Shown piece after piece: positions 38,590 through 38,808 of a DNA stretch of 53,345 nucleotides (its first letter is position 1; each line of letters opens with the position of its first letter). The position numbers and the translations under genes are program-made. Location of the stretch: assembly GCF_003334405.1 (NCBI RefSeq), contig NZ_QOWM01000021.1. One strand, given 5' to 3'. The notes below the pieces were generated by a model, which worked only from the letters and a program-made list of their open reading frames with translations, was not told the origin of the DNA and ran no database searches. The stretch is from Escherichia coli (lineage in GTDB: Bacteria; Pseudomonadota; Gammaproteobacteria; Enterobacterales; Enterobacteriaceae).

Positions 38590-38808
38590 ATGGGCAGAAT
38601 TTTACTCGATTTATCGAATGAGGTGATTAAGCAACTTGATGATCTCGAGGTGCAGCGTAATCTTCCTCGTGCGGACCTATTAAGGGAAGCGGTAGATCAA
38701 TACCTGATAAATCAATCGCAAACAGCAAGAACCAGTGTTCCTGGCATCTGGCAAGGGTGTGAGGAAGATGGTGTCGAATATCAGCGTAAGCTGCGCGAGG
38801 AATGGTAA
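38590..38808 (+). CDS. Small ribbon-helix-helix (CopG-like) protein, YiiE/YiiF family
   Basis: 72-aa [45 protein letters not shown]...; the RHH beta-strand/helix pattern fits CopG/Arc-type DNA-binding proteins. I cannot decide from memory whether this is yiiE or yiiF. Confidence 0.7.

Follow-up and report, generated by a model that had tools for sequence, protein, structure and literature searches.

The closest described system to the one analysed here, the gene yiiF in a stretch of 53,345 nucleotides (nt) of Escherichia coli DNA (RefSeq assembly GCF_003334405.1, contig NZ_QOWM01000021.1; the whole stretch is called the window below), is a VapBC toxin–antitoxin pair with PDB entries 7BY2 and 7BY3; chain A is named 'CopG family transcriptional regulator' and chain B 'Ribonuclease VapC'. 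We take these structures to be those of Klebsiella pneumoniae proteins, since a K. pneumoniae chromosome encodes a pair identical over the aligned residues to chains A and B of both entries. YiiF itself has a solved structure, PDB 2K5J, obtained for the Shigella flexneri protein by structural-genomics nuclear magnetic resonance. It was deposited without a function as 'uncharacterized protein yiiF', the entry name carries no link to VapB or VapC, and one automatic classification did not place the structure in the ribbon-helix-helix (RHH) fold (PMC2916923). The RHH-type VapB/FitA antitoxins (for example Mycobacterium tuberculosis VapBC, 3H87 and 5X3T), like AtaR, KacA and CopA_SO, consist of an RHH domain that binds DNA and a C-terminal extension that binds the toxin, a layout that YiiF would share. 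Orphan antitoxins have been surveyed in K. pneumoniae, where the commonest origin reported is decay of the toxin gene in situ (Horesh et al. 2020, as cited in PMC7354431), and they have been discussed as anti-addiction modules (PMC7354431). YiiF of E. coli appears among uncharacterised transcription factors (PMC4797297; PMC9308461), its expression standing out when transcription termination is inhibited with bicyclomycin (PMC9308461), and the related gene yiiE is up-regulated on SlyA overproduction, in a table whose markers we take to denote H-NS-bound regions (PMC5797941). No paper that connects yiiF with VapB turned up in a literature search on yiiF, yiiE, 2K5J and 7BY2.

The window covers the E. 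coli yihY-dtd-fabY(yiiD) ... fdhE-fdoIH region, and comparison of this locus across Enterobacteriaceae indicates that yiiF is very probably the surviving, solitary VapB antitoxin of a vapBC module that has decayed. The gene is a positional orthologue of the Klebsiella vapB, whose 82-aa product has the same RHH N-terminus and the same C-terminal motif; unlike the Klebsiella pair, the window has a destroyed toxin gene, an antitoxin with at least 14 derived substitutions and a mutated Shine-Dalgarno (SD) block. Its 80-aa protein is 100% identical to 2K5J. Sequence similarity to the other RHH antitoxins is low, and the YiiF clade differs from them by an 8-residue N-terminal extension that is absent from the wider family. 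As in the orphan antitoxins of K. pneumoniae, the antitoxin gene survives and the toxin gene decays in place; unlike there, a full series of intact, deleted, repeat-invaded and antitoxin-less states is visible in E. coli and its sister species.

The yiiF gene and its intact counterparts

The open reading frame (ORF) that an earlier note on this DNA had flagged, 38590..38808 on the plus strand (72 aa), is real according to the ORF list, in which it is nested in frame within a longer frame of 80 aa:

38566..38808, plus strand: yiiF coding sequence, putative RHH-type VapB antitoxin orthologue (ORF list, RefSeq, identity to 2K5J, match to 7BY2, RHH fold)

RefSeq annotates the 80-aa form ('protein YiiF', WP_001086388.1). 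The longer start is favoured by the ancestral SD sequence, the RefSeq call, the 2K5J construct and the 82-aa chain A of 7BY2, and the shorter one by distant family members, which start at the residue equivalent to M9. In the window allele an AGGT motif can be read 6 nt before ATG 38590, and the SD sequence upstream of ATG 38566 is damaged. The start appears ambiguous between 38566 and 38590, and the 72-aa reading is defensible.

Orthologues of yiiF with 63–76% identity occupy the same dtd-fabY...fdhE locus in other lineages, and in each of these the next gene (vapC), overlapping by 1 nt (TAATG), encodes a PIN-domain toxin of 124–127 aa. This arrangement is found in Pseudocitrobacter, a cryptic Escherichia clade (Escherichia sp. 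E4694), Citrobacter freundii, Salmonella enterica subsp. diarizonae and K. pneumoniae. Within E. coli, blastn detected an intact vapC directly after the yiiF orthologue in 57 of the 5426 complete genomes (~1%), in which it is annotated as 'type II toxin-antitoxin system VapC family toxin'. YiiF matches chain A of 7BY2 over residues 2–80, the C-terminal segment included (E 3e-29), and the E. coli VapC matches chain B (E 9e-63). Furthermore, distant family members also precede PIN genes where their context was checked. Taken together with the toxin relic described below, these alignments make it highly probable that YiiF is the RHH-type VapB antitoxin of an old chromosomal vapBC operon lying between fabY and fdhE in Enterobacteriaceae.

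This VapC subfamily is essentially absent from enterobacterial plasmids: a search of a plasmid collection returned two close matches, one to a K. pneumoniae chromosome of 5.4 Mb misfiled among the plasmids and the other to a 425-kb C. freundii record. A YiiF homologue was likewise not found in 50,697 phage records. The misfiled replicon (PLSDB CP125156.1, our locus L024; 5.37 Mb, 'plasmid unnamed2') carries dtd-fabY-fdhE-fdoI, and plasmid matches for chromosomal genes in PLSDB therefore need checking.

Remains of vapC downstream of yiiF

The earlier note had described yiiF as lacking an adjacent toxin partner. The ORF list of the window does contain no intact toxin-sized ORF beside yiiF, but the remains of a PIN/VapC gene are present at 38808-39101, interrupted by an insertion of repetitive extragenic palindromic (REP)/bacterial interspersed mosaic element (BIME) sequence. 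The segments are as follows:

38808..38831, plus strand: vapC relic, 5' end, its ATG sharing 1 nt with the stop codon of yiiF, the arrangement of intact vapBC operons (alignments to intact vapC)
38832..38990, no strand assigned: REP/BIME-containing insertion of ~150 nt in the vapC relic (REP copies, repeat count, absence from deletion-only alleles)
38859-38892, no strand assigned: Y-type REP (copies elsewhere in the window)
38928-38956, no strand assigned: second REP, inside the 38832..38990 insertion
38991..39044, plus strand: vapC relic, what is left of codons ~11-30, scrambled, extending to the joint of the central 213-nt deletion and ending in an in-frame TAG (pairwise alignments of intact, deletion-form and window sequences)
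39045..39101, plus strand: vapC relic, 3' end, last 18 codons up to the stop codon, with a 15-nt internal deletion (tblastn, alignments)

When the Pseudocitrobacter VapC was compared by tblastn with the entire window, the only significant match was at 39045-39098 (16/23 identities, E 2e-4); the relic reads LEVVTRNTRD-GVVTPYEL, against LELVTRNTKDFKDIVGVVTPYEL in the Pseudocitrobacter protein, and no toxin was matched elsewhere in the window. The 5' end was aligned with intact vapC of E. coli 2016C-3878, Escherichia sp. and Pseudocitrobacter, and the vapC start ATGGGAAAAAA at 38808 still overlaps the yiiF stop. In the window, vapC has suffered a 1-nt frameshift, a 213-nt central deletion that took out most of the PIN domain, a 15-nt deletion and the REP/BIME insertion. 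Of the four segments that supply acidic residues to the PIN catalytic core, FDTN, WMEV and PDAII are gone, and of the fourth, TRNxxDF, only ...TRNTRD-GVVTPYEL is left. Judged by these lesions, vapC in the window is dead beyond repair, and the downstream REP elements sit within its remains.

An E. coli genome contains a median of 39 copies of the segment 38832-38990, which gives sub-threshold Rfam matches to naRNA4 and ES036 that we read as REP-related. Further copies of the Y-type REP, with 1-2 mismatches, lie at 12807-12840, 22837-22870 and 53155-53188. The same decay can be followed in stages across strains. Strains 98889 and 2022N21 carry the frameshift and the 213-nt and 15-nt deletions without REP, the insertion being absent from these deletion-only alleles (loci L013 and L014); E. 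fergusonii, O157 and K-12 have the REP insertion in addition; and APEC17 lacks yiiF altogether.

An ORF of 62 aa at 38802-38990 was considered as a gene and rejected: it begins at ATG 38802, two codons before the relic vapC ATG at 38808, whose frame it shares, and continues across the REP elements. Its translation through coupling to yiiF is conceivable, but the ORF is a by-product of decay.

Three further observations concern vapC in other genomes. In E. fergusonii (L006), a 152-nt REP/BIME segment lies between 8-bp direct repeats of ATACCAAT, at 3255-3262 and 3415-3422. This octamer occurs once in intact vapC and twice around the insert, and the repeats therefore resemble a target-site duplication; the window counterparts, at ~38820-38827 and 38983-38990, are degenerated. 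Decay has also occurred independently in a metagenome-assembled enterobacterial genome, in which vapC is cut to 43 aa (L019, 2743-2874). Finally, one representative protein (P0123) joins VapB to the ~30 C-terminal residues of VapC, a fusion that evidently followed a central deletion.

Fold and conserved C-terminal motif of YiiF

An RHH N-terminus of the antitoxin type had been proposed from the sequence, and the model and the family both agree with it. By itself the window protein matches Pfam RHH_1 only weakly (independent E-value 0.007-0.009, not significant alone), whereas 40 of its 47 aligned relatives match at E<=0.001. An AlphaFold2 (AF2) model built on the 47-sequence alignment has an extended segment at residues 10-16, helices at 18-31 and 35-56 and a C-terminal helix at 69-79, with a predicted local distance difference test score of 89-93 over residues 11-50. 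Its top structural match in Foldseek is 2K5J, followed among solved structures by CopG, CopA_SO, ORF56, Arc, AtaR, KacA and M. tuberculosis VapB. The 40-47-residue matches across the RHH domain (CopG, CopA_SO, Arc) have a root-mean-square deviation (rmsd) of 0.8-1.5 A; for CopG (1EA4/1B01) it is 1.4-1.5 A with a template-modelling (TM) score of 0.78-0.80 normalised by target, and for CopA_SO (6IYA) 0.8 A with a TM score of 0.90. In addition, the two chains listed for 2K5J are identical in sequence, as would fit a dimer. The RHH (CopG/Arc/MetJ) fold of YiiF, with its N-terminal beta-strand and two helices, is confirmed at the level of the predicted model.

The C-terminal part, which had been described simply as a charged tail, is indeed present but proves more specific, carrying the conserved family motif AFGLW...DG(L/V)xYQxxLRxEW that is common to more distant members (30-45% identity). 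Across 47 family members G60, R77 and W80 never vary, conservation of W62 and E79 is at least 90%, and all five residues are present in the window protein. By analogy with what is known of the family, the segment G60-W80 would be the part that contacts VapC.

Evolution of yiiF after loss of the toxin

The earlier note had also considered that yiiF might be a degraded pseudogene fragment in most genomes. The gene is found in 4745 of the 5426 complete E. coli genomes, in 4735 of them (87%) at 80% coverage or more, so that it is not yiiF but its toxin partner that is degraded in most. The remaining 681 genomes, that of APEC17 among them, lack yiiF, and the gene is therefore dispensable in E. coli.

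The ratio of non-synonymous to synonymous substitution rates (dN/dS) is 0.03-0.05 in contrasts between toxin-bearing lineages, and 0.36 and 1.54 in independent contrasts among toxin-less alleles; the window allele compared with that of O157 gives 0.36, and some allele pairs are close to 1. When changes are pooled, toxin-bearing lineages show 54 synonymous and 17 non-synonymous changes versus 9 and 24 in toxin-less ones (Fisher p 3.5e-6). With Pseudocitrobacter and C. freundii as outgroups, 14 derived amino-acid changes are assigned to the window allele and 0 to the E. coli allele that retains vapC; the C. freundii sequence loses register beyond the linker, where polarity rests on Pseudocitrobacter. 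Those of the window allele comprise A58V and substitutions in the N-terminal extension, in the RHH domain (D18N, R23Q, K28E, E37D) and in the linker; F59P lies at the conserved AFG(L/I)W position. Other vapC-less alleles carry the C-terminal changes Q73L, E79K, C65S and E71Q, and 98889 and 2022N21 have alterations within their last 21 residues. The substitution pattern indicates that yiiF has been under relaxed constraint since the loss of the toxin.

Sequences upstream of yiiF

Three conserved blocks precede yiiF: TCTGGAAA(A/G)CG(C/G)CTCGCA... at 38453-38480, a GTAT..TTG block ~40 nt before the yiiF start, and an SD/inverted-repeat block immediately before the 80-aa frame. The first and the last have the following positions in the window:

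38453..38480, plus strand: conserved upstream block TCTGGAAAACGCCTCGCAAAAATAAAAA, 28 nt, candidate promoter/operator (alignment, K-12 copies)
38546..38565, plus strand: eroded ribosome-binding/inverted-repeat block ATGATATTGGCGAGATATTT (alignment of 8 loci)

In loci that bear vapC, the 20-nt block before the start reads ATGATATACTGGAGGTATAT, with a GGAGG SD sequence inside the inverted repeat ATATAC-N5-GTATAT. It is 100% conserved in the vapC-bearing loci of four genera and, additionally, in L019, where vapC is truncated. Within the vapC-less Escherichia alleles it has been mutated in three ways, the window reading GGCGAG. The inverted repeat around the SD sequence is the best operator candidate, visible only by comparison with vapC-bearing loci and eroded in the window. 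No other intergenic block is as well conserved between Escherichia and Salmonella, Citrobacter and Pseudocitrobacter as the one at 38453-38480, of which K-12 has one copy ahead of yiiE and another ahead of yiiF. The Pseudocitrobacter locus has a terminator-like hairpin immediately 5' of the conserved region, and the operon promoter should therefore lie within ~140 nt of the start.

The block at 38453-38480 has a conserved sigma-54-like GG-N10-GC spacing (TGGAAAACGCCTCGCA), the consensus used being GG and GC 10 nt apart within TGGCAC-N5-TTGCW. A sigma-54 promoter was nevertheless set aside here as unsupported: position -14 is C instead of T, and neither E. coli sigma-54 chromatin immunoprecipitation sequencing (PMC4591121) nor RpoN selection by systematic evolution of ligands by exponential enrichment (PMC8743547) lists a site at yiiD, yiiE or yiiF. 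Elsewhere in the window, CTGGCGCGAATTCTGCA at 40530-40546 (minus strand), inside fdoI, is identical to the intragenic sigma-54 site IS47 (PMC4591121).

Loss of yiiE and the fabY-fdhE islet

The surroundings of yiiF are as the earlier note had described them, AT-rich upstream, with REP elements and fdhE downstream (GC profile, REP copies, ORF list). The GC content is 30-39% from ~37720 to 38560 and 52-60% in the flanks. Two further features delimit the interval:

38429..38511, no strand assigned: interval containing the crossover of the 438-bp yiiE deletion, a single remaining hybrid repeat (blastn against K-12; compare L001, 1230-1750)
39138..40067, minus strand: fdhE, convergent conserved gene, right border of the variable fabY-fdhE islet (ORF list, annotation)

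In K-12 and most strains yiiF is preceded, at a distance of 217 nt, by another RHH gene, yiiE. YiiE is 72 aa long, 40% identical to YiiF across the RHH domain and unrelated to it in the tail, and a direct repeat of ~83 bp precedes both genes in K-12. The window lacks 438 bp including yiiE, and the exact junction recurs in 13 of the 5426 complete E. coli genomes; the deletion that cost this strain yiiE was mediated by the repeats and is a recent event in its own right. Among vapC-bearing loci yiiE is present in Escherichia and not in other genera, and it therefore looks like an Escherichia-specific partial duplication.

The RefSeq content of the AT-rich stretch is a pseudogene fragment only (38075-38191, 'hypothetical protein, missing C-terminus'), which corresponds to a 52-aa ORF at 38075-38233 without a family match. 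More generally, the fabY-fdhE interval is a hypervariable islet rich in toxin–antitoxin genes (L003, L004, L011, L014, L015, L016, L018, L019, L024). Depending on the strain or genus it contains, besides yiiE and vapBC, ParDE, HigBA, a RelE-like gene with a helix-turn-helix partner (nadS), an alpha/beta hydrolase, and two small ORFs (70 and 92 aa) rich in Cys and Arg.

Proposed history of the locus and alternative explanations

We propose that in the intact operon VapB would dimerise through its N-terminal beta-strand and bind operator DNA in its own promoter, as family knowledge and 7BY2 suggest, and that its C-terminal segment G60-W80, with the invariant Trp and Arg, would clamp and block the PIN ribonuclease VapC. 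With vapC reduced to end fragments in the window, YiiF would therefore be without a toxin in cis to neutralise. Since that loss yiiF would have drifted under relaxed selection, and its SD/inverted-repeat block would have eroded. The analogy of other VapB/RHH antitoxins makes autoregulation plausible; the present YiiF is most likely a weakly expressed, vestigial DNA-binding protein that probably acts, at most, as a weak repressor of its own promoter.

Several observations weigh against this history. No canonical sigma-70 promoter was found in 38250-39150 (0 sites), nor upstream of the intact operons L010 and L003 (0 sites). The search for palindromic operators near yiiF that the earlier note had suggested yielded no clear one, only two weak AT-rich inverted repeats in 38380-38620, and none was evident in the intact loci either. 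An NCBIfam scan of YiiF, the 52-aa ORF at 38075 and the 62-aa ORF at 38802 returned nothing above the cut-offs. For YiiF the sole match was NF008671 (LexA-regulated protein; 17.2 bits versus a cut-off of 62), VapB_Myco reached 18.9 bits versus a cut-off of 60 with the vapC-bearing allele only, and none of the curated NCBIfam models covers the YiiF subfamily. The gene is annotated as such in the sampled genomes, and ~4680 vapC-less genomes (~86%) keep it at 80% coverage or more. None of the last 21 residues has changed in the alleles of the window, O157 or E. fergusonii, and five divergent toxin-less alleles have no indel, frameshift or stop in yiiF, the neighbouring vapC relic having, by contrast, gathered several indels. 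The intact frame and the unchanged C-terminus are compatible with some residual selection.

Of the competing explanations, a completely dead gene fares best, although we consider it doubtful. Under this explanation the frame would be intact only through its shortness and the recent loss of the toxin, with neither transcription nor translation to a meaningful level. It would account for the lack of a promoter-like site, the mutated SD sequence and the dN/dS near 1 in some allele pairs, and it fits the AT-rich setting, in which the neighbouring yiiE region has been reported as H-NS-associated and SlyA-derepressed (PMC5797941), as well as the expression of YiiF noted mainly under bicyclomycin (PMC9308461). 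However, the lack of indels in the five divergent yiiF alleles beside a relic with several, and a dN/dS of 0.36 rather than 1 between the window and O157 alleles, speak for more than a silent remnant, and the AGGT motif before ATG 38590 could still drive translation of the 72-aa form. A silent gene and the vestigial antitoxin proposed here may be only partly distinguishable.

That the solitary antitoxin is maintained for a function in the ~86% of E. coli that keep it without vapC, whether as an immunity factor against circulating vapBC or as a domesticated repressor working with YiiE through the duplicated block, appears unlikely. In the latter form, YiiF, with or without YiiE, would have been kept as a stand-alone repressor of its own promoter and/or of AT-rich islet genes. 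The retention of the ORF in 87% of E. coli genomes, the conservation of the block at 38453-38480 and its duplication before yiiE and yiiF in K-12, the 40% identity of the two RHH domains, which could recognise related sites, and the place of YiiF on lists of uncharacterised transcription factors (PMC9308461; PMC4797297) are what one might expect of such a repressor. Yet dN/dS is near neutral after toxin loss, with four changes in the RHH domain itself, the SD/inverted-repeat block is eroded, yiiF is missing from 681 genomes, and yiiE is absent here without any sign of compensation. Nor did we find evidence for the control of the AT-rich stretch by YiiF that the earlier note had envisaged, the stretch holding only a pseudogene fragment and hence little to regulate; altogether, there seems to be only a slim chance that YiiF is a domesticated repressor. 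Least probable of all, and in our view very improbable, is an anti-addiction or immunity role in which YiiF would neutralise same-subfamily VapC arriving on incoming DNA or by recombination with the ~1% of vapBC-bearing E. coli: the fully conserved, putatively toxin-binding C-terminal segment in the window, O157 and E. fergusonii alleles, the circulation of an intact cognate-type vapC in E. coli and the anti-addiction modules discussed for orphan antitoxins (PMC7354431) point towards it, but the scarcity of the VapC subfamily on enterobacterial plasmids, the absence of YiiF homologues from the phage records, the A58V/F59P changes at the conserved AFG(L/I)W position of the window allele and the C-terminal changes in other vapC-less alleles point away.

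Implications

The gene in the window is an ordinary evolutionary outcome and not a new kind of regulator or mechanism. With a vapBC origin, a K-12 y-gene that has a solved structure and no assigned function would gain an annotation, as an orphan antitoxin accompanied by a vapC pseudogene at 38808-39101. In most listings YiiF appears as a putative transcription factor of the CopG family, and its being an orphan antitoxin beside a wrecked VapC gene would explain why no regulon has been found for it. Moreover, E. coli and its relatives show every stage of decay at this one locus, from the intact pair through an internally deleted and then a REP-invaded toxin gene to a lone antitoxin and finally to neither gene, and the locus may serve as a natural series for how toxin–antitoxin modules die and for the fate of the surviving antitoxin.

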